Notes: generated from the letters alone by a model not told the origin. DNA of 64,000 nt from Candidatus Omnitrophota bacterium (GCA_041648915.1 JBAZOC010000001.1:10801-74800); one strand, 5' to 3'. Shown: positions 5,195 through 64,000, numbered from the stretch's first letter. Numbers and translations are program-made.

Positions 5195-6196
5195 ATGAGG
5201 GTTTTTAAAAAAATATTATCCGTATTATTAAGAATAACCGTAAGCGTTGTTTTACTGGTCCTTTTGTTCAAGTTCAACAAAATCGATATCAGTAATTTGA
5301 TAAATGATATAAAAGGAGCGGATAAGGCGCTTTTAGCCGTAGGCTTTATAATCTACTTTTTGGTTTATTTCCTCGGATTTTGGCGTTGGCATATGCTGCT
5401 TAAGGCAGCGGGTATCCATGCCCCTTTAAAGAGGCTGCTGGTTTCATTTTCCGGGGGAGTTTTTTTTAGCATTTTTCTGCCTTCTACCATCGGCGGGGAT
5501 ATTGTCAAAACTGCCGATCTTGCCGGACATACCCGTAAAACTAAAGAGGTTATCGCTACGGTCCTGCTGGACAGGCTAAGCGGTTATATCGGCCTGGTCC
5601 TGGTAATTTTACCTGCCCTCTTATTAGGCAGGGAGATGGTGCGGGATAAAGTTGTTACCTCGTCGGTCGCCGTCATCGTTATTCTGTTGATCGGTATCCT
5701 CCTGGTTTTATTCAATAGATTTATCTATTCCCGGATTACCAAATTCCTCACTGCTCCGGGAGCGGGAAAGATCAAAGAGACGCTTAGTGATTTACATAGC
5801 GAGATCCATATCTTTCGCCATCACAAAAAATTGATCGCCTACAACCTGATTTTGTCTTCTTTTATCCAGCTTATCGCGCCGTTAAGCGCTTACTTTATCG
5901 CCCTCTCTCTTGGCGTAAAAATCAACTTTCTTTATTTCTTGGTTTTCCTGCCGATAATCGGGGCGATCACGTTGCTTCCTATAGCTATAGGCGGCCTGGG
6001 CCTGAGAGAAAACCTTTTTGTAGTTTATTTCGCCAAGGCTGGAGTAATCAAACAATTAGCCGTAGCTATGTCACTCTTATCATTCTCTTTTGTCGTAATT
6101 TACGGAGCAGTGGGAGGCATAATCTATGTCCTTACAGTACATCATCGACGGGTACAACATAACCAACCATCCCGCATTCATAAAGTTAATCCCTAA
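5195..6196 (+). CDS. polytopic membrane protein, UPF0104 / lysylphosphatidylglycerol-synthase-TM-like (flippase-like)
   Basis: 333 aa with about 8 hydrophobic segments. Has the N-terminal KxxLxxLLRI pattern typical of the UPF0104 family. Confidence 0.6.
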   Translation: MRVFKKILSVLLRITVSVVLLVLLFKFNKIDISNLINDIKGADKALLAVGFIIYFLVYFLGFWRWHMLLKAAGIHAPLKRLLVSFSGGVFFSIFLPSTIGGDIVKTADLAGHTRKTKEVIATVLLDRLSGYIGLVLVILPALLLGREMVRDKVVTSSVAVIVILLIGILLVLFNRFIYSRITKFLTAPGAGKIKETLSDLHSEIHIFRHHKKLIAYNLILSSFIQLIAPLSAYFIALSLGVKINFLYFLVFLPIIGAITLLPIAIGGLGLRENLFVVYFAKAGVIKQLAVAMSLLSFSFVVIYGAVGGIIYVLTVHHRRVQHNQPSRIHKVNP

Positions 6197-8218: not shown

Positions 8219-8262
8219 CAAACCCCGCACTTTTTAAGTTAAAGTGCGGGGTTTTTATTTTT
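8219..8262 (+). terminator. intrinsic terminator
   Basis: Stem CCCCGCACTTT (8223-8233) pairs with AAAGTGCGGGG (8241-8251) and is followed by a T-run. Confidence 0.85.
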
Positions 8263-8297
8263 GGAGCTATAGGGGGTAAGAGCAGGAGTATAATATA

Positions 8298-9806
8298 ATG
8301 AAATATGATGCGCTAATCATAGGTGGTGGATTGGGAGGGCTTACCGCCGCAGCTAAGCTGGCCAGGGAAGGTAAGAAGGTTTTGCTAATTGAGCAGCACA
8401 CTATGCCCGGCGGGTGTGCAACGGCATTTAGACGCGGGAATTACACAATGGAAGTAGGGTTGCAGCAGACAGTTTTGCTTTATGATAGTATTTTGCGGAA
8501 AAGAATATTCCATGAATTAGATATTCTTAATAATATTGAATTCATACCTATTCCTGAATTTTACCGCTTTATTAGCGAGAAGGTTGATATTGTCATACCG
8601 AACGATTACCTGAAAGCCGAAGCCGAACTCATTGAGCATTTTCCTTCCGAAGAAAAAGGAATAAAAAGTTTTATAAGTATTACTAGAAATATGCTCAAGG
8701 AATATGAGAGGCTGCCTAGAGAGACGTGGAAGCGATTACTCTGGGTGCCCCTGATCCCCTTTCTTTGTCCCACGCTGGCCCGCTACTATTATGTAAGCGT
8801 AGGTAAATTCGTAGACACAGTTATAAAAAATGAAGATTTGAAATTGGCCTTGCTTGCTAACTTAGGCTATTATCATAATGATCCTTATACCCTGCCATTA
8901 TTATTTTTTGCGATAGCGCAAGGGAGATTCTATCTTGGTAAAGGCCGCTATATAAGAGGCGGTTCGTATAAGCTTCCTGAATACCTGTCCGGATTCATAA
9001 AAAAATTTAGCGGGGAAGTCTTGCTGGGGCATTTAGTGACAAAAATCCTGGTTGAAAATAAGAAGGCGGTAGGGATAGAATATATAAAGAAAGAAGGGGG
9101 CGGGGAAGCGAAAAGAGCTTATGCCAAGGTCATTATTGCAAATGCGAGTATTCCTAGCGTTGCCCAGGAACTCCTCCCGGATAAGGAAGCAGGGATACTT
9201 AAGCGGAAAATTAAGAAAATGGAGCACGCCTGCTCTTTGCTGACTATTTTTTTATTTTTTAAAAAGCCGGCAAAAGATTTCGGCTGCAGGAATTATTGCA
9301 ATATTTTTTTGAGCCCTCAAGTAAAGTCATTAGGCGGGATCAATTTAGATAGGAGTGTCGCAGAAAAGAGCTTTGCGTTCGTGGATTACGGCCAGATTGA
9401 TTCACAGTTGGCTCCGGCAGGCAGGGGCGTCGGGGTGATTCATACGGTTGATTATCTTAAAAATTGGTTGAATTTGAGCGTTGATGAATATAAGGCCAGG
9501 AAAGAAAGAGTTGCCCATGATTTTATAGAGAGGCTAAACGGAATTTTCCCGGGCATAAAAGAAGGGATAGATTTCTATGAAGTGGGCACTCCAAAAACGA
9601 TTAAGCGCTATACTTTAAATCCTTCGGGGACCGCCTATGGCTTTGCGCAGATCCCGAGCCAGTCTGGGGTAAAACGCATTAAGCATAAGTCGCCCATTAA
9701 GAATCTTTATTTTGCTTCTGCCTGGACCAGGCCCGGCGGAGGATTTACGGGCGCGGTCTTAAGCGGTTATTGCTGCGCAGAAGAGGTATTGAGGAAGTAT
9801 AGATAA
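8298..9806 (+). CDS. FAD/NAD(P)-binding oxidoreductase, phytoene-desaturase (CrtI) family
   Basis: 502 aa. N-terminal dinucleotide fold DALIIGGGLGGLTAA followed by IEQHTMPGGC. C-terminal GGGFTGAVLSG is typical of COG1233 enzymes. Confidence 0.75.
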   Translation: MKYDALIIGGGLGGLTAAAKLAREGKKVLLIEQHTMPGGCATAFRRGNYTMEVGLQQTVLLYDSILRKRIFHELDILNNIEFIPIPEFYRFISEKVDIVIPNDYLKAEAELIEHFPSEEKGIKSFISITRNMLKEYERLPRETWKRLLWVPLIPFLCPTLARYYYVSVGKFVDTVIKNEDLKLALLANLGYYHNDPYTLPLLFFAIAQGRFYLGKGRYIRGGSYKLPEYLSGFIKKFSGEVLLGHLVTKILVENKKAVGIEYIKKEGGGEAKRAYAKVIIANASIPSVAQELLPDKEAGILKRKIKKMEHACSLLTIFLFFKKPAKDFGCRNYCNIFLSPQVKSLGGINLDRSVAEKSFAFVDYGQIDSQLAPAGRGVGVIHTVDYLKNWLNLSVDEYKARKERVAHDFIERLNGIFPGIKEGIDFYEVGTPKTIKRYTLNPSGTAYGFAQIPSQSGVKRIKHKSPIKNLYFASAWTRPGGGFTGAVLSGYCCAEEVLRKYR

Positions 9807-9838
9807 TAAAAATTCATATTTGGGTCTGCGGTTTAAAG

Positions 9839-10240
9839 ATGAGTATTGAGAAAAATTTCGTTATTATGTTTTTTATCATCTGGTGCATTCTGGTATTTGA
9901 GCCCATAATACGTCAGGTGCAGGAAACATTTACCTTTTTACTTCCCGTTTATTCTTTAAGCCTGGAAGAGAAGCACAACCTAATTGACGGAAAATTTTAC
10001 AATTTTGTAAAGTTATGCGTAGCGAGCATCCAGGAGAATGAAAGTATAATATTTAAGGTCATCCCGCAGGAACCCGATTTTAGGACACCCGATTGGCTAC
10101 TTAAGGAATACCTGATCGGTAGATTGTCTTATTTTCTTTATCCCCGGAAGATATTACGGGAGCAAGACCTAAGCGGAAAAGCTCAATATATTATGCTATT
10201 TGATACCAATGCCAAGACTTTAAAACTCAGTAACCGTTAA
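9839..10240 (+). CDS. hypothetical N-terminally anchored protein
   Basis: 133 aa with a single N-terminal hydrophobic helix. I recognise no motif. It fills the gap between flanking genes on the same strand. Confidence 0.4.
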   Translation: MSIEKNFVIMFFIIWCILVFEPIIRQVQETFTFLLPVYSLSLEEKHNLIDGKFYNFVKLCVASIQENESIIFKVIPQEPDFRTPDWLLKEYLIGRLSYFLYPRKILREQDLSGKAQYIMLFDTNAKTLKLSNR

Positions 10241-10249
10241 GGGCACAGG

Positions 10250-11632
10250 ATGATTTTTCTTAAATTTACATTAGCTGTTTTGAGCATAATAATTACGGGC
10301 TACGCCGGGTTAAGATTATTTACCGGACCCAGGAAAGAACTGCCGCTGGGAGAAGTTTTGTGCCTTTCTTGGGGAATGGGCGTAGGGTTTGTGGGGCTGG
10401 AAGGTTTTTTATTAACGCTCTTTAAACATCCGCTTAGCTTAGGCTATCTGCTATTTTTTCAAATCGTTTTTATCATCTTTGTGGCCTTGAAACTCAAAAG
10501 AGGCTTTTGCTGTTGTTGCACTGCGTCCTGGTATAAGCAGAAGATTTCCTATTCGCCCTTAGCGGTATTTTTACTGGTTATAATCATAGTGGAAATAGCT
10601 TATGTATTCCTTAAGGCATCCAGTCTTCCTTTTAGTGCCTTGAATTGGGATGCCTGGGCCAGCTGGGGCTTTAAGGCTAAGATTTTTTTTCAGGAAAAGG
10701 CTTTTCCCGTGCAGTCCTGCGTCGTATTCCCCGGCTTTGCCCATCCCGATTATCCGGTGCTCATTCCATTTGCAGAAGCATATATTTATTTTTTCCTGGG
10801 GCAAATACATGAACCGTTAATAGGATGTTTTTGTTCTTTTTTCTACGCAGCGACGGTCATTTTATTTTATTATCAGCTCAAAAGGCGGTTCAAAATTGAA
10901 TTCGCCCTGGGCGGCAGCCTGGTTCTGGCTACTATCCCGAGCCTAGTCAATCTGGCTTCCACCGCTTATATGGATGTGCCGCTTGCCTTCTATATCACCG
11001 CCGGTAGCCTGTATATCTGGAGGTATTTAAAGGAAAAAGATAATTTTTGCCTTATAATGGGTGCTTTTTTTACGGGACTGGGGATGTGGGTAAAGAATGA
11101 AGGGTTTGGTTTTTGGGTAGCTTTAGTTTTGAGCTGTTTAGCGATCTGCCTCTGGTTTAAGTTAGATATCCATAAAAAAAAGTTTCTTTCCGCAGTTGCA
11201 TTTATACCGGCATTAATTTATTTACCTTGGTTATTATTCAAATGTTACTTTAAGCTGGGAGTTACTTATTTCCAGGGCCCGGCGGCTGGGAATTTATTGG
11301 ATTTAATAAAGCAGCGGCTGCCTATGGCTTTAGAGATCTGGATAAAGCGCGGTTTAGATATAGGAAGGTGGAACATCTTCTGGGTAGGTTTTATTATCGC
11401 CCTGCTATGGTTTTTAGTAAGGCCCAGAGAAAAACTAGCCTGGTTCTTATTGTTTATTGTTGTTTTGCAGCTGTTTTTTTATTTTATTATCTATATTATC
11501 TGGCCGATAAGCCTGGCGGATTTGGAATTACAAATCTTTAACTCCGTAGATAGGCTGCCGCTGCAACTGGTAACGCTAGTCTTATTTTTTATCTGTTTAC
11601 AAATAGGAGAAAAATGGAGGGTCAACCCTTAG
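10250..11632 (+). CDS. polytopic membrane protein, GT-C/ArnT-PMT-like putative glycosyltransferase
   Basis: 460 aa with more than 10 TM segments. A loop reads NWDAWASWGFKAK...HPDYPVLIP, reminiscent of GT39/PMT_2-type enzymes. The assignment is by resemblance only. Confidence 0.45.
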   Translation: MIFLKFTLAVLSIIITGYAGLRLFTGPRKELPLGEVLCLSWGMGVGFVGLEGFLLTLFKHPLSLGYLLFFQIVFIIFVALKLKRGFCCCCTASWYKQKISYSPLAVFLLVIIIVEIAYVFLKASSLPFSALNWDAWASWGFKAKIFFQEKAFPVQSCVVFPGFAHPDYPVLIPFAEAYIYFFLGQIHEPLIGCFCSFFYAATVILFYYQLKRRFKIEFALGGSLVLATIPSLVNLASTAYMDVPLAFYITAGSLYIWRYLKEKDNFCLIMGAFFTGLGMWVKNEGFGFWVALVLSCLAICLWFKLDIHKKKFLSAVAFIPALIYLPWLLFKCYFKLGVTYFQGPAAGNLLDLIKQRLPMALEIWIKRGLDIGRWNIFWVGFIIALLWFLVRPREKLAWFLLFIVVLQLFFYFIIYIIWPISLADLELQIFNSVDRLPLQLVTLVLFFICLQIGEKWRVNP

Positions 11633-13065
11633 GGAATTTTTCCCATATTGATTTTAAGCAGGCGCGTAGCGCACATTGGGACGGGCTTAGCCGTTTCCGG
11701 GATAAACAAGGGGGATGGGGAGGGTATTATCACCGGCGCTTGGCAGAAATATACAGGTTTAGCGTTAGGCCTAATCAGCGTGTCTTAGAAATTGGCTGCG
11801 GCTACGGAGATCTATTAAGCGCATTAAAGCCAAGTCTGGGCGTAGGGGTGGATTTTTCCGAAAAGATGCTGCGCCAGGCGCAGGTGCGCCATCCAGAGCT
11901 TCATTTTATACAGGCGGATGCGCAGGAATTCAGTATTAACGCACAGTTTGACGTAATTATTCTTTCTGACCTGGTCAACGATTTGTGGGATGTCCAGAGT
12001 GTTTTTGAAAGATTGCATTTAGTGTCCACGCCTCAAACGCGGGTTATTTGTAATTTTTACAGTAATCTTTGGATGAAACCGCTGCAGCTAGCCCAAAATT
12101 TCAAGGTGGCCCAGCCCCTGCTTCCCCAAAATTGGTTGACCCGGGAGGATATAACAAACTTATTCTATCTTGCTGATTTTGAGGTTATCCGTTCCTGGAG
12201 GGAGATTTTATGCCCTTTGCCGGTTCCTGTCCTTAAGGAGCTTGCTAACCGTTTTCTGGTAAAATTTTGGCCATTTAGTATTATGGCCCTGACCAATTTT
12301 ATCATAGCGCGGCCCAAGCCGCGAAATCTGGCTGCCGTTAAGCAGGCGTCTGTCTCGGTGATCATCCCTGTGCGGAATGAATCCGGGAACATTGCGCAGA
12401 TATTTGAACGGATGCAGAAAGAAACAGGAAAAGAAACAGAGCTTATTTTTGTAGAAGGGCATTCTACGGATAATAGTTTTGAAGTTATCCGTAAATACAT
12501 TGCGGATTATCCGGACTTAAAGTGTAAATTGTTCAAACAGGAAGGGAGAGGCAAGGGTGAAGCAGTGCGCCTGGGTTTTGCTAACGCCAGCGGGGATATC
12601 CTGGTGATTTTAGATGCTGACCTGACGGTTAGCCCGGAAGACTTAAGGAGATTCTATGCATGCCTTTTTACCGGTAAGGCTGATTTTGTGAACGGTGTCC
12701 GCCTGGTTTATCCGTGGCAGCAGAAAGCTATGCGTTTTTTAAATCTATTAGCCAATAAATTTTTCAGTATTGTTTTTTCCTGGCTCATCGGCCAGCAGAT
12801 TAAAGATACCCTCTGCGGGACAAAAGCGCTCTGGCGTAAAGATTACCTTAAGATAGCGGAGAACCGCAGGTATTTTGGGGATTTTGACCCCTTTGGGGAT
12901 TATGACCTTATTTTCGGCGCAGCGGCTTTAAATCTTAAAATAGTGGATCTGCCGGTACGCTACTACGAGCGTCAATACGGTAAGACTAATATCCGCAGGT
13001 GGCGGCATGGCTGGCTTCTTTTACGCATGGTATTTTTTGCTGCCAGGAAGATTAAATTCATATAG
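11614..13065 (+). CDS. fusion protein: class I SAM methyltransferase (N-terminal) plus family-2 glycosyltransferase (C-terminal)
   Basis: 483 aa. Methyltransferase motif I is LEIGCGYGDLL. The GT2 part has VSVIIPVRNE and the DxD motif ILDADL. The C-terminal hydrophobic tail is WLLLRMVFFAA. Confidence 0.75.
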   Translation: MEGQPLGNFSHIDFKQARSAHWDGLSRFRDKQGGWGGYYHRRLAEIYRFSVRPNQRVLEIGCGYGDLLSALKPSLGVGVDFSEKMLRQAQVRHPELHFIQADAQEFSINAQFDVIILSDLVNDLWDVQSVFERLHLVSTPQTRVICNFYSNLWMKPLQLAQNFKVAQPLLPQNWLTREDITNLFYLADFEVIRSWREILCPLPVPVLKELANRFLVKFWPFSIMALTNFIIARPKPRNLAAVKQASVSVIIPVRNESGNIAQIFERMQKETGKETELIFVEGHSTDNSFEVIRKYIADYPDLKCKLFKQEGRGKGEAVRLGFANASGDILVILDADLTVSPEDLRRFYACLFTGKADFVNGVRLVYPWQQKAMRFLNLLANKFFSIVFSWLIGQQIKDTLCGTKALWRKDYLKIAENRRYFGDFDPFGDYDLIFGAAALNLKIVDLPVRYYERQYGKTNIRRWRHGWLLLRMVFFAARKIKFI

Positions 13066-46098: not shown

Positions 46099-46170
46099 GG
46101 GCCCATAGCTCAGCGGTAGAGCAGGTGACTCATAATCACTTGGTCGGAGGTTCGAACCCTTCTGGGCCCA
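46099..46170 (+). tRNA. tRNA with CAT anticodon (elongator Met, or Ile2 if lysidine-modified)
   Basis: Hand-folded cloverleaf. Acceptor stem is GGGCCCA/TGGGCCC, D stem is GCTC/GAGC, anticodon loop is CTCATAA, T-loop is TTCGAAC. The G1-C72 pair argues against an initiator. No CCA is encoded. Confidence 0.88.
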
Positions 46171-46176
46171 GATTTA

Positions 46177-46253
46177 GGGCGATTGGCTCAGTTGGTTAGA
46201 GCGCCACATTCACATTGTGGAGGCCAGAGGTCCGAATCCTCTATCGCCCACCA
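46177..46253 (+). tRNA. tRNA-Val (CAC)
   Basis: Hand-folded cloverleaf. Acceptor stem is GGGCGAT/ATCGCCC, anticodon stem is CCACA/TGTGG with loop TTCACAT, T-loop is TCCGAAT. CCA is encoded. Confidence 0.88.
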
Positions 46254-47445: not shown

Positions 47446-47804
47446 GGGCAGGTAGAGTGTGGCCGCCCCAGGCTTTATAAGCCCAAGGGGAGGAAAGTCC
47501 GGGCTCCGGAGGATAACGCAGTAGGGTAATGCCTACCCGGCAGGTTAATCGCTTGCCGAGGATAAGAGCCACAGAGACGAGTAGCAGTCGAAGACTGCGA
47601 GATGAAACGCGGTAATCTCTGCGTGGAGCAAGGCGAATAGGAGATAAAGTCCCTTACCCAGGGCGCGCGCTCATCCGGCGCGTTATTTAAATCTCGGGTA
47701 ATAAGCTGCTTGAGCTCTGATAGCAACATCGGAGTCGAGAGGAATGGTCACTTTTCGATGCGCATACTCGCATCAAGACAGAACCCGGCTTATTTTATCT
47801 GCCC
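47446..47804 (+). ncRNA. rnpB: RNase P RNA (bacterial type A)
   Basis: The universal P4 5' strand GAGGAAAGTCCGGGCTCC is at 47490-47507. The 3' strand ACAGAACCCGGCTTA is at 47778-47792. The ends GGGCAG and CTGCCC can form P1. Length is about 359 nt. Confidence 0.9.
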
Positions 47805-47833
47805 TTTTTAAATTAAACATAAGGAGGAAACAA

Positions 47834-48580
47834 ATGTCTGGTCATTCTAAATGGAAGACGAATAAAGGAAAAAAGATGGCGGCGGACGCCAAAAAGGGAG
47901 CGACCTATACTAAGATAATTAAGGAGATTACAGTTATTGCCCGTGAGGGCGGCGGAAATCCGGACAGCAACCCGCGTCTGAGAGCGGTCATGATGAAGGC
48001 GAAAGAAGCAAATATGCCTTCAGATAACGTGAAGATGGCGATTAAGCGCGGCACAGGCGAATTACCGGGCGTAGTCTACGAGACCTGCATGTATGAGGCC
48101 TATGGCTCCGGTGGGGTAGCCATGATGATTGAAGTGCTCACGGATAATAAAAACCGTACGAGCGCCGAAATTCGTAATATCATGTCTAAGAAAGGCGGGA
48201 GTTTTGCCGGGGCCGGCTCAGTGAGCTGGATGTTCACGATGAAGGGTTATTTCCTGATTGAGAAGTCCCAGGCTAAAGAAGACGAGCTGATGAATATTGT
48301 CTTGGATGCGGGAGCCGAGGATATGAAGTCGGATGAGAAAAATTATGAAGTGTTTTGCCCTCCGCAAAATTTTGAAAAGGTAAAACAGGCCCTTGAGGCC
48401 AAAGGTATTAAAACCCAGGATGCCGAAGTCACCATGATCCCTTCTTCTACGGTTAAATTGACCGGCAACGATGCTAAGCAGTTATTATCTTTGATCGATA
48501 CCCTGGAAGAACATGATGACGTAGAGCATGTCTACGCCAACTTTGATATACCGGATGAAGTAATGGAGAGTATGGCCTAA
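47834..48580 (+). CDS. yebC: YebC/PmpR-family transcriptional regulator
   Basis: The start is trimmed to the ATG at 47834 (MSGHSKWKT, the canonical YebC start), with an AAGGAGG RBS at 47821-47827. The ORF-track extension from 47744 runs into rnpB. Confidence 0.9.
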   Translation: MSGHSKWKTNKGKKMAADAKKGATYTKIIKEITVIAREGGGNPDSNPRLRAVMMKAKEANMPSDNVKMAIKRGTGELPGVVYETCMYEAYGSGGVAMMIEVLTDNKNRTSAEIRNIMSKKGGSFAGAGSVSWMFTMKGYFLIEKSQAKEDELMNIVLDAGAEDMKSDEKNYEVFCPPQNFEKVKQALEAKGIKTQDAEVTMIPSSTVKLTGNDAKQLLSLIDTLEEHDDVEHVYANFDIPDEVMESMA

Positions 48581-61918: not shown

Positions 61919-64000
61919 TTATTCCATATAGATATCAATCATATCAAACTGGCAGGACCTTGCGCGTTGTGCGTAAGGTGAGGGGATAACGGAGGAGTGG
62001 ATTACCACAGGTTTCTCTTTATTCCTAAGGACAATTTGCATAATCTGCGCCGCATTTTTTCCAAAGGTATTCTTTCGTCCGGGATTATAATAAGTCACCC
62101 TAATCTTGCTCAAGAAATTAAAACTGTATTCGCCTTTTTTGTTGAACAGCCAACCGCTCAGCCGGGGGCTGAATTTTAACTTTAGCTCGTTATGATCTAA
62201 GAAGAAAGGGGCTAAGCCCGTATTCATCGTCAGCCATAGCTCTAAGAATTCAGCAGTTGAGCCGGAGAGCCGCGCGACAAAACCGTTTCCGTGCAGTTTA
62301 GGATCGCTAAACGCGCTGCTTACCAGGAAAGATGAATTTTCCAGAATACTTCTTCCATAAATTTTAGGTTTCTGAAAAGGTATCAGCGTATCTTTAAACT
62401 CCGCGTAAAATTCTTCATTCAGCCCGGCTTTTAAGAGTTCCAGCAGGTATTTATATTCCATATGCAGCCAGATAGATTCATTTTCCAGCCAGCCAGGAGC
62501 AAATACCCGGCACCTGCCGATTTCTTCGGACATTGCGTTTAAGGAGGCGGTGACCTTATACATCTTAAGTTTTTTGTCAAAAAGGGCGCTCTGTTTTGTC
62601 CCCTGGTGGATGAGCCTGGCCTGAGCCGGGTTGCCTGCCAGGCGCAGGGCGTGCACCTGGGTCTCTAAAAATAAAGGGAGACGGGTTTGTCTGAATTTAA
62701 GCGGTTTTATAAAATGCTCATTTAAATTTTCATAGGCAACTGCCTCGTTTATAAAATACCCGTAGTAAACCTTTTCTTTCTCATTCCAGGCTTGGGATAT
62801 CCCCAGCTCAATCTTTTCTAATAACGTATCAAGAATACCCGTTATTTGGGAAGCAGGGATTTCTGATTCTTTTCCGCTCACCCCCATTTTTGTCATACTG
62901 CGGTAGTTTTCCTTCAGGGAATGCGTTTGGTCCCACCAGGTATAATCATCCATGGTTTTATTCAGGTAAGCGCAGGTCAGGCCGCTGAGCTGGCTTAAGA
63001 AAGAGTAGATCTCCTCGCAGACGCTTAGTTTTTCCAATCCGGTTTTTTGCAGGGCCTCTTTAATAAAGAGCGCCAGGCGTTTTAATTCCAACGTCTCGCA
63101 GAGCGATGAACCAAAGAGCGCGGGCAAGCCGTTAAGCGCATCAAACCAGTTGGGTTTGTTTGCTTCCATCTCTACGCCTACGCCGAAAGGGTCAAGCGAA
63201 GCGAATTTATTGCTCAGGAGGCAGAGTAGCTTATTAGCCAGCGTTGTGCTATAAATTTCACCCTGGCCGAATTGTGTCCTGACAATATGGGGAAGCTCTT
63301 TACGTTTGCGCAGCATTTCTTTTTTGGCGTTGTCGCAGGTGACCGCGTGCAGCTGGCGGGCTTTAGCGTTATAGAGGACGCATTTTTCGTTACGCGGCCT
63401 GACCACTTCGGAATTATCAAAAAATGTAAAGTTCCGGTTAGCAAAGACTATTTCGCTTAATTTTTCCGGGTAAAGCTTCAGGTAGCTATCCAGCAGGTCA
63501 AGGTTATAATGCCAGTGGTCGCTCCAGTAGCCTTCGCCGTGTTCAGCCTCGTGGGTTTTTAGCGCCGAGGAGATGACCAGGTCCAAAAATTCATCATAGG
63601 AAATATTGAGCGGGATCTTCCTTTCTTCAATAAACAGGATGACTTCACCCGGGGTAAAGGGTTTGCTGAGGAAGGTAATTATACGCTCGAGGTTTTTCGC
63701 AGCGCAGGATGATTGCAATTTTGTTTTAAGGCCGCTGCTGTCCTTAAGGATGAAACTTGTGCCCTTGACCACAAGCGGGTTAAAGCCGTCCAACTGGATT
63801 AGATTGAAAAGACTGAGCACATTTTCATCTTTTATTTCAGGGTGAAACCATATATCGTTCCTGCGGTTCTGATTTAAATCCCGATAGTTGCCATTGCCTT
63901 GAGAAAAGTAAGTAGGTGCAAGCTGGAATTTATTATAGTCGCGTTCAAGATCGCCGTGTTTACGGGAATACAGGTAAAAGGTCTGGCCGGATTTGAAAGT
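61919..64000 (-). CDS. large (alpha/alpha)6-barrel glycoside phosphorylase/hydrolase-like protein (GH94-superfamily-like), 5' end outside window
   Basis: The reading frame stays open to position 64000. The M at 63820 in the ORF track is an internal GTG. Upstream in-frame residues read ...QGNGNYRDLNQNRRNDIWFHPE.... The motifs GNYRDxNQN, GYWSDHWHYNLDL, NWFDALNG and ENESIWLHMEY resemble cellobiose-phosphorylase-type catalytic domains, from memory. Confidence 0.5.
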   Translation of the reverse strand, partial: TFKSGQTFYLYSRKHGDLERDYNKFQLAPTYFSQGNGNYRDLNQNRRNDIWFHPEIKDENVLSLFNLIQLDGFNPLVVKGTSFILKDSSGLKTKLQSSCAAKNLERIITFLSKPFTPGEVILFIEERKIPLNISYDEFLDLVISSALKTHEAEHGEGYWSDHWHYNLDLLDSYLKLYPEKLSEIVFANRNFTFFDNSEVVRPRNEKCVLYNAKARQLHAVTCDNAKKEMLRKRKELPHIVRTQFGQGEIYSTTLANKLLCLLSNKFASLDPFGVGVEMEANKPNWFDALNGLPALFGSSLCETLELKRLALFIKEALQKTGLEKLSVCEEIYSFLSQLSGLTCAYLNKTMDDYTWWDQTHSLKENYRSMTKMGVSGKESEIPASQITGILDTLLEKIELGISQAWNEKEKVYYGYFINEAVAYENLNEHFIKPLKFRQTRLPLFLETQVHALRLAGNPAQARLIHQGTKQSALFDKKLKMYKVTASLNAMSEEIGRCRVFAPGWLENESIWLHMEYKYLLELLKAGLNEEFYAEFKDTLIPFQKPKIYGRSILENSSFLVSSAFSDPKLHGNGFVARLSGSTAEFLELWLTMNTGLAPFFLDHNELKLKFSPRLSGWLFNKKGEYSFNFLSKIRVTYYNPGRKNTFGKNAAQIMQIVLRNKEKPVVIHSSVIPSPYAQRARSCQFDMIDIYME

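Follow-up and report, generated by a model that had tools for sequence, protein, structure and literature searches.

A candidate extracytoplasmic glycosylation module, and a variable gene slot in front of it, in a Candidatus Omnitrophota genome

Do four closely spaced genes in the metagenome-assembled genome of a Candidatus Omnitrophota bacterium serve one envelope pathway? The genes lie on the plus strand at positions 8298-13065 of a stretch of 64,000 nucleotides (GCA_041648915.1, JBAZOC010000001.1:10801-74800), the whole of which is called the window here. Gene A (8298-9806, 502 amino acids, aa) encodes a flavoprotein, gene B (9839-10240, 133 aa) a small anchored protein, gene C (10250-11632, 460 aa) a polytopic protein with a predicted GT-C glycosyltransferase fold, and gene D (11614-13065, 483 aa) a methyltransferase fused to a family 2 glycosyltransferase (GT2). 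A and B are 32 nt apart, B and C 9 nt, and C and D overlap by 19 nt, so that the four open reading frames (ORFs) and the gaps described in an earlier sequence-only reading of this DNA were reproduced; the family assignments made there for the four proteins were also upheld by Pfam/NCBIfam and PDB scans. The records of the four proteins (MFA4989166-69) name them NAD(P)/FAD-dependent oxidoreductase, hypothetical protein, GT39 family protein and glycosyltransferase. Database homologues exist for all four, which are therefore real genes. In the present study, comparative synteny backs a unit of three genes (B, C and D), not of four. We consider it probable that B-C-D (9839-13065) constitutes an Omnitrophota-specific module for extracytoplasmic glycosylation, working with a lipid-linked monosaccharide donor, and that A has no part in it.

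The gene in front and the extent of the unit

The proposal of a four-gene cluster started from a strong terminator upstream and from the tight linkage behind it. The terminator is indeed present: an intrinsic terminator follows the MscS-like gene on the plus strand (8220..8264), with a stem of 14 bp at 8220-8254 that holds 7 GC pairs and is succeeded by a T-run, and its sequence is kept in the relatives L006 and L171. The linkage, on the other hand, is uninformative about an operon here, because close co-directional spacing is the norm across the window, unrelated genes included. About 60 genes in the first 62 kb all lie on the plus strand with a median gap of 0 nt, 68% of the gaps measure 35 nt or less, and the spacing is just as tight among clearly unrelated neighbours such as purC/flippase-like/NYN/MBL and miaB/SPOR/miaA/hflX.

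We compared 13 genomic contexts of gene C (the window and 12 others), 80 loci of the A family with 10 kb flanks and 80 loci of the D family. Four relatives (L006, L171, L170 and ERZ1426815) share with the window a backbone that runs through purC, LPG_synthase_TM, NYN, MBL, the MscS-like gene, the terminator, a slot, B, C, D and miaB and continues beyond it; among them, identity to the window's D protein is 94% in two, 81% in one and 77% in one. In all four the slot is occupied by a heavy-metal P-type ATPase of about 699 aa. On DNA alignment, homology stops at about 8268, just past the terminator, and restarts exactly at the B start codon at 9839, so that the segment between them (8269..9838, plus strand; counterparts L171:4104-6254 and L006:5435-7588) shares no DNA homology with the close relatives. 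The alignment reads as a clean cassette replacement between the conserved terminator and B. Base composition was tried as a sign that A had been acquired horizontally and was rejected as such: A is no outlier (z -0.8 for GC, -1.4 for GC3), its composition is unremarkable, and the swap is argued from synteny alone. A second variable slot lies after D, with a patatin gene in ERZ1426815 and an S4_2 gene that is present or absent.

It had been suggested that A leads the operon and that all four genes form one pathway, in which A desaturates, saturates or otherwise modifies a lipid carrier, a lipid-linked sugar or a carotenoid- or hopanoid-like lipid that is then glycosylated. Such a role would suit a co-directional gene that lies so close upstream of B with no terminator in between, and a flavoenzyme tailoring a lipid-linked sugar donor has a precedent in DprE1 of the decaprenyl-phosphate-arabinose pathway (PMC11127046). 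Against it stand the ATPase found in place of A on the same backbone in relatives with D proteins as close as 94%, 81% and 77%, the clean breakpoints around A, and a spacing that is ordinary in this genome. Moreover, no relative of B, C or D occurs near an A homologue in any of the 80 A-family loci, no relative of A near a D-family gene in any of the 80 D-family loci, and no A homologue in any of the 12 other B-C contexts; the four-gene arrangement, when sought in other genomes, was not syntenic. Because an ATPase replaces A in the close relatives and A does not co-occur with B-C-D elsewhere, we exclude A from the unit and read it, from gene order, as a functionally unrelated gene in a variable slot. 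The four-gene pathway is thus largely refuted by synteny, and we give it very little credence.

The transferase, its small partner and the fused GT2

Gene C was identified by fold comparison alone, as sequence and profile searches against the PDB found no solved GT-C enzyme. Its PMT_2 match stays below threshold (22.4 bits versus a cut-off of 26.1), and most of its homologues, which are confined to Omnitrophota, carry precomputed PF13231 (PMT_2), those of L170 and L171 also PF02366 (PMT). The AF2 structure model of C (pLDDT 90, pTM 0.92) is all-helical and polytopic, with no soluble domain, and its top 22 Foldseek matches in the PDB are all GT-C proteins (AftA, STT3, Pmt4, AglB, ArnT, PglB and ALG12), with Pmt1/2 also among the matches; the lipid A transferase ArnT gives the best TM-score and root-mean-square deviation among the full-length ones. 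On this model C is a GT-C-fold enzyme, as the sequence-only reading had surmised for the 460-aa protein.

The C family has conserved motifs of its own. D134, part of WDAW, shows no exception among 36 sequences, and the HPDYP motif, K282 and E284 (KNEG) and R435 are invariant or nearly so. D134 opens a juxtamembrane helix within a long loop, and a positive-inside reading of the model gives 13 transmembrane helices with the conserved polar residues all on the predicted periplasmic side, which makes a periplasmic active site plausible. A run of four cysteines (C residues 87-90, window 10508-10519), located in a predicted cytoplasmic loop where model confidence is low, was considered as a family feature and rejected, since it is kept only in the closest relatives.

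What accompanies C most faithfully is B. In each of the 13 contexts, the gene immediately upstream of C is a small one without a Pfam match, separated from C by a few bases or overlapping it. It was recognized as a B relative by tblastn in L001-L009, apart from L005, where the alignment is weak, and by profile in L172 (28% identical); in the P0044 contig (25% identical; 136 aa) it was judged by size and position only, and in ERZ1426815 (139 aa, no Pfam match) from the gene table only. An exhaustive phmmer search among 1.84 billion representatives returned 28 relatives of B, one of which is a GT2 with B fused at its C-terminus (P0307). Given this strict adjacency and the GT2-B fusion, we read B as an obligatory partner of C, and the B + C pair as the conserved core of the locus, as far as gene order can tell.

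B itself matches no Pfam or NCBIfam family. It has one hydrophobic segment (residues ~6-24), predicted as an N-terminal membrane helix, followed by a small alpha/beta domain, and the model (pLDDT 94.9) likewise consists of a long N-terminal helix holding the membrane segment and then the alpha/beta domain. Comparison of the model with PDB folds gave no meaningful match (best E 0.04, TM 0.30), and the idea that B is a detached ArnT-like periplasmic domain found no structural support in that search. Nor is B GtrA-like: the small flippases of that type have about 120 aa and four transmembrane helices, as against a single hydrophobic segment and an alpha/beta domain in B.

Gene D combines a class I S-adenosylmethionine (SAM) methyltransferase (residues ~45-192; Pfam match at nt 11746-12189) with a DPM1/ArnC-like GT2 domain (residues 247-483, nt 12352-13062), and its sole hydrophobic segment (residues 214-232, nt 12253-12309) is the linker between them. 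The hydrophobic C-terminal tail once attributed to the GT2 proved to be a short amphipathic stretch, not a transmembrane domain. Searched with a D-family profile, the PDB yields DPMS 5mlz as the best match (2.7e-17), followed by three ArnC entries (the four spanning 2.7e-17 to 1.5e-14), and the ER..G motif of D aligns with the C-terminal motif of ArnC. Neither the SAM-binding motif nor the DAD motif varies within the family.

The fusion had been singled out as a feature outside known systems. That claim is overstated: the fusion is a very common and highly conserved family, with 55-65% identity across phyla. No characterised member was found, our literature searches on methyltransferase-GT2 fusions having returned nothing usable. 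All 8000 scored candidates have E <1e-10; the 120 matches listed are all full-length fusions of 465-500 aa, among which the closest relatives are 76-94% identical and the rest 61-65%, and those with a source name, the closest relatives aside, come from Chloroflexota/Anaerolineae or Planctomycetota. Metagenomes contribute at least 600 matches. A neighbour with at least 8 transmembrane segments lies within 3.5 kb in 32 of 73 D-family loci, as compared with 17 of 79 in the A-family control, and the 40 polytopic neighbours so found include 9 PMT_2 and 3 YfhO proteins and 7 with TPR repeats. A class I methyltransferase of about 256 aa, mostly on the same strand, follows the D-family gene in 33 of the 48 metagenome loci that have downstream sequence (e.g., L107:10661-11431), and shares 51% identity with a methyltransferase of an Omnitrophota B-C cluster; other recurrent genes at D-family loci encode FkbM-type methyltransferases (9 loci) and an epimerase resembling GDP-fucose synthase (12 loci).

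Proposed donor and acceptor, and the company of the module

Across the Omnitrophota contexts, D or an unfused GT2 lies beside or close to C in 12 of 13, the exception being the P0044 contig. The fused form occurs in the window and in six other contexts (L006, L007, L170, L171 and two ERZ1426815-type contigs), and all close relatives retain the 19-nt overlap of C and D. Where the GT2 is separate, it is the immediate neighbour of B-C in L003, L172 and L005 and lies close by in L001 and L009. More distant B-C clusters contain an unfused DPM1-like GT2, separate methyltransferases, radical SAM enzymes, members of the GT9 heptosyltransferase family, Wzy_C and ManC. Because these clusters hold an unfused GT2 and separate methyltransferases beside B-C, the fusion in the window's clade is a compact form of a recurrent gene set. 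Within about 8 kb on either side of C, the larger clusters (L003, L008, L009, L001 and L172) also contain radical SAM, SPASM and B12-binding radical SAM enzymes, a thiamine-pyrophosphate-dependent E1 alpha/beta dehydrogenase pair, GT9, Wzy_C, extra PMT_2 paralogues and methyltransferases, a mix that is unusual for a surface-glycan locus. At L008:9362-9682, directly after C, a methyltransferase fragment of 106 aa is 38% identical to D residues 38-115 and precedes a B12-binding fragment; the methyltransferase piece has the look of a D gene that has decayed or been rearranged.

The two-step logic of a polyprenyl-phosphate sugar consumed by a GT-C enzyme, proposed earlier for this locus, fits what we found: C has a GT-C fold in the model, the GT2 of D is, among solved structures, nearest to DPMS and ArnC and has AglJ as its best NCBIfam match, and nearly every related locus has a GT2 gene linked to the GT-C gene. 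In the scheme that we favour, D, at the cytoplasmic face of the inner membrane, would use its GT2 domain to load polyprenyl phosphate with a hexose taken from a nucleotide sugar, as homology suggests; its methyltransferase domain would most likely methylate that sugar, with the lipid-linked intermediate or a precursor of it as substrate; a putative flippase would then turn the donor over, and C would transfer the sugar, possibly methylated, to an envelope acceptor on the periplasmic side. C lacks a soluble domain, and for this reason B may serve as a stabilising or acceptor-binding subunit.

An alternative assigns to D a different chemistry, namely tailoring in the cytoplasm, where D would attach a sugar to a growing undecaprenyl-diphosphate-linked glycan and methylate it, for instance as a methyl-sugar cap that ends the chain, while C and B draw on another donor. 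Comparable enzymes exist in WsaE, a methyltransferase-glycosyltransferase, and WbdD, a chain terminator. The missing transmembrane domain of D would agree with this, and so would its scores far under the AglJ, ArnC and DPM equivalog cut-offs and the neighbours at D-family loci (the ~256-aa and FkbM-type methyltransferases and the epimerase), which resemble O-antigen-type clusters. Yet the four best solved relatives of D are all polyprenyl-phosphate glycosyltransferases, the ER..G motif aligns with one of ArnC, the overlap with a GT-C gene persists in all close relatives, and the D family is enriched beside GT-C proteins, which need just such a lipid-phosphate donor. We therefore hold a capping role of D to be unlikely and retain it as the probable synthase of the lipid-linked donor.

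As to the acceptor, the gene company in related loci suggests an LPS (lipopolysaccharide)-core-like glycolipid as the most likely target: GT9, Wzy_C and ManC, neighbours of LPS type, occur in L003, L005, L008, L009 and L172. The same mechanism could also act on a protein, in the manner of PMT/TMTC-like O-glycosylation of envelope or secreted proteins. C and its homologues match PMT_2/PMT, which are protein O-mannosyltransferase families, Pmt4 and Pmt1/2 are among the fold matches of C, and D adjoins PMT_2+TPR proteins in L007 and in other phyla, TPR domains typically binding proteins. However, C has neither a TPR nor a MIR domain, the related B-C loci have GT9, Wzy_C and sugar-nucleotide genes around them, as is typical of LPS and surface-glycan assembly, and it is the lipid A transferase ArnT that scores best among the full-length fold matches of C. 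A protein acceptor thus seems to us a possible but distinctly less favoured target, roughly one chance in a few, and we continue with the glycolipid as the presumed acceptor.

Several observations weigh against a donor-making D and a GT-C transferase C as we describe them. D has no transmembrane domain, whereas archaeal DPMS, GtrB and ArnC each have one; where D matches DPMS, it does so mainly over the nucleotide-binding half; and it falls below every NCBIfam equivalog cut-off, with 96 bits versus 325 for AglJ, its best match, and 48 versus 529 for ArnC. The Foldseek figures for C are modest (E 5e-3 to 0.1, TM 0.42-0.48), and D134 follows the fourth helix, whereas GT-C enzymes of class A have the catalytic Asp/Glu in the first extracytoplasmic loop, after TM1. 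For B, the flanking charges are ambiguous under the positive-inside rule (+1.8 before the helix, +1.5 after it), so that charge leaves the side of its domain undecided. No GtrA/GtcA, SMR (ArnEF) or MATE flippase gene was found at 8.2-13.1 kb. Finally, while folds, family relationships and synteny were computed, we infer from them the sugar and substrate, the methylation target, the acceptor and the contact between B and C.

Three-component periplasmic glycosylation has been defined for GtrABC and related systems, including the GT136 pentofuranose system (PMC11127046). B-C-D resembles GtrA/GtrB/GtrC, ArnC/ArnEF/ArnT, CsbB/GtcA/YfhO and the GT136 system in its predicted GT2-type synthase that would load a monosaccharide on polyprenyl phosphate, in a GT-C-fold transferase acting outside the cytoplasm, and in the tight linkage of the two genes. 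It differs from them in that the module has no recognisable flippase gene, the GT2 is joined to a SAM methyltransferase and lacks a transmembrane domain, and the GT-C protein, devoid of a soluble domain, always comes with the single-pass B, whose model matches no solved fold. With DPMS 5mlz, a dolichol/polyprenol-phosphate mannose synthase, the GT2 domain of D has its best sequence match and an aligned DAD motif, whereas the N-terminal methyltransferase is an addition to the DPM-type synthases, whose equivalog thresholds D does not reach. Human DPM1 and the catalytic domain of mycobacterial Ppm1, like D, have no transmembrane domain of their own. C shares with ArnT (GT83), PMT (GT39), AftA and STT3 the common fold, a weak PMT_2 similarity and an invariant Asp in a long loop, predicted as periplasmic in C, with juxtamembrane helices; it departs from them in having no sequence-level match to a solved GT-C, no C-terminal periplasmic domain, about three extra N-terminal helices before the Asp loop, and its own WDAW, HPDYP and KNEG motifs. 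In eukaryotes, the GT-C mannosyltransferase PIG-M works with a single-pass stabilising partner, PIG-X. The B-C pair, whose interaction we take from gene adjacency only, is similar in joining a GT-C enzyme to a dedicated single-pass protein, although B has no sequence or fold similarity to PIG-X.

The flavoprotein family, neighbouring features and the Omnitrophota envelope

Gene A, set apart from the module above, encodes a full-length CrtI/CrtISO/CrtD/RetSat-like FAD oxidoreductase, with Pfam Amino_oxidase (residues 12-498) and NAD_binding_8 matches and an FAD-binding Rossmann motif, GGGLGG, at residues 9-14; its best PDB relatives are CrtI 4dgk (aligned over 6-493) and gamma-carotene desaturase 4rep. 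The Amino_oxidase, CrtI-family architecture is that of the carotenoid enzymes, but the scores stay far below every carotenoid-enzyme equivalog cut-off (TIGR02734, 125.8 versus 238; TIGR02730, 188.9 versus 587; TIGR02733, 158.2 versus 550 bits). The family counts 1752 homologues at E <1e-10, 45-66% identical, in many phyla of anaerobic bacteria and archaea among others: Nitrospirota, with the best matches, Dehalococcoidia, Patescibacteria, Heimdallarchaeota, Desulfobacterota, Chlorobi, Bacteroidales and cyanobacteria. The Nitrospirota matches reach 64-66% identity, while a homologue from another member of the Omnitrophota has 51%. The recurrent neighbours of the 80 A homologues compared are of lipid type, namely acyl-CoA ligase, DUF2141, Kup and PfaA-like polyketide synthase, not carotenoid genes. 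An acyl-CoA ligase stands beside the A homologue in 19 Bacteroidales loci (L049-L089 range), with DUF2141 nearby in 12 loci, and a PfaA-like polyketide/polyunsaturated-fatty-acid synthase does so in two Nitrospirota loci and one Dolichospermum locus (L014:2178-9716, L022:2247-9548, L050:5478-9863). Some members of the family carry a fused FNR-like NAD-binding domain (P0137, P0141 and P0159). Taken together, family and company suggest an oxidoreductase of lipids or polyenes with a very wide distribution in anaerobes; literature searches on bacterial RetSat-like enzymes returned nothing usable. The carotenoid-like flavoprotein is no fit basis for inferring lipid-carrier chemistry, and neither gene order nor tight spacing is evidence of shared function in this genome.

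Two kilobases upstream of the cluster, an LPG_synthase_TM or flippase-like protein is encoded on the plus strand (5195..6196; PF03706, 1e-40; TIGR00374). Its gene is syntenic only in the window's own clade and absent near the other B-C loci, and to name it as a candidate flippase of the module is speculative. Its ORF overlaps that of the NYN/YacP gene by 71 nt (6126-6196), as it also does in a relative (L006:3351-3421); this may be a true overlap, or else the start codon assigned to NYN is too early.

In the wider window, all genes in 1-61917 lie on the plus strand, the first gene on the opposite strand starts at 61919, and the cumulative GC skew rises steadily. No riboswitch or other RNA element turned up in or around the A-D cluster in an Rfam scan. 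Positions 46099-46250 and 47446-47808 hold two tRNA genes and an RNase P RNA of the bacterial class A type, whose 3' end is overlapped by a long ORF (47744-48580).

Omnitrophota are an uncultivated phylum whose cells are often very small or host-associated, and to our knowledge their envelope chemistry is essentially unknown. The uncharacterised components of what is otherwise a known type of system are B and the methyltransferase domain of D. The conserved pair of a GT-C protein and a small partner inside LPS-type clusters points to a lineage-specific surface modification. More tentatively, and with the odds clearly against it, B-C may be a new two-subunit GT-C transferase, B with its novel fold supplying in trans the extramembrane, acceptor-binding part that is built into other GT-C enzymes, and D making a methylated polyprenyl-phosphate sugar; if true, this would define an undescribed and common route by which O-methyl sugars reach bacterial envelope glycoconjugates. 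The fusion of methyltransferase and GT2 is abundant in Chloroflexota, Planctomycetota and many metagenomes, and assigning its function would annotate thousands of genes.

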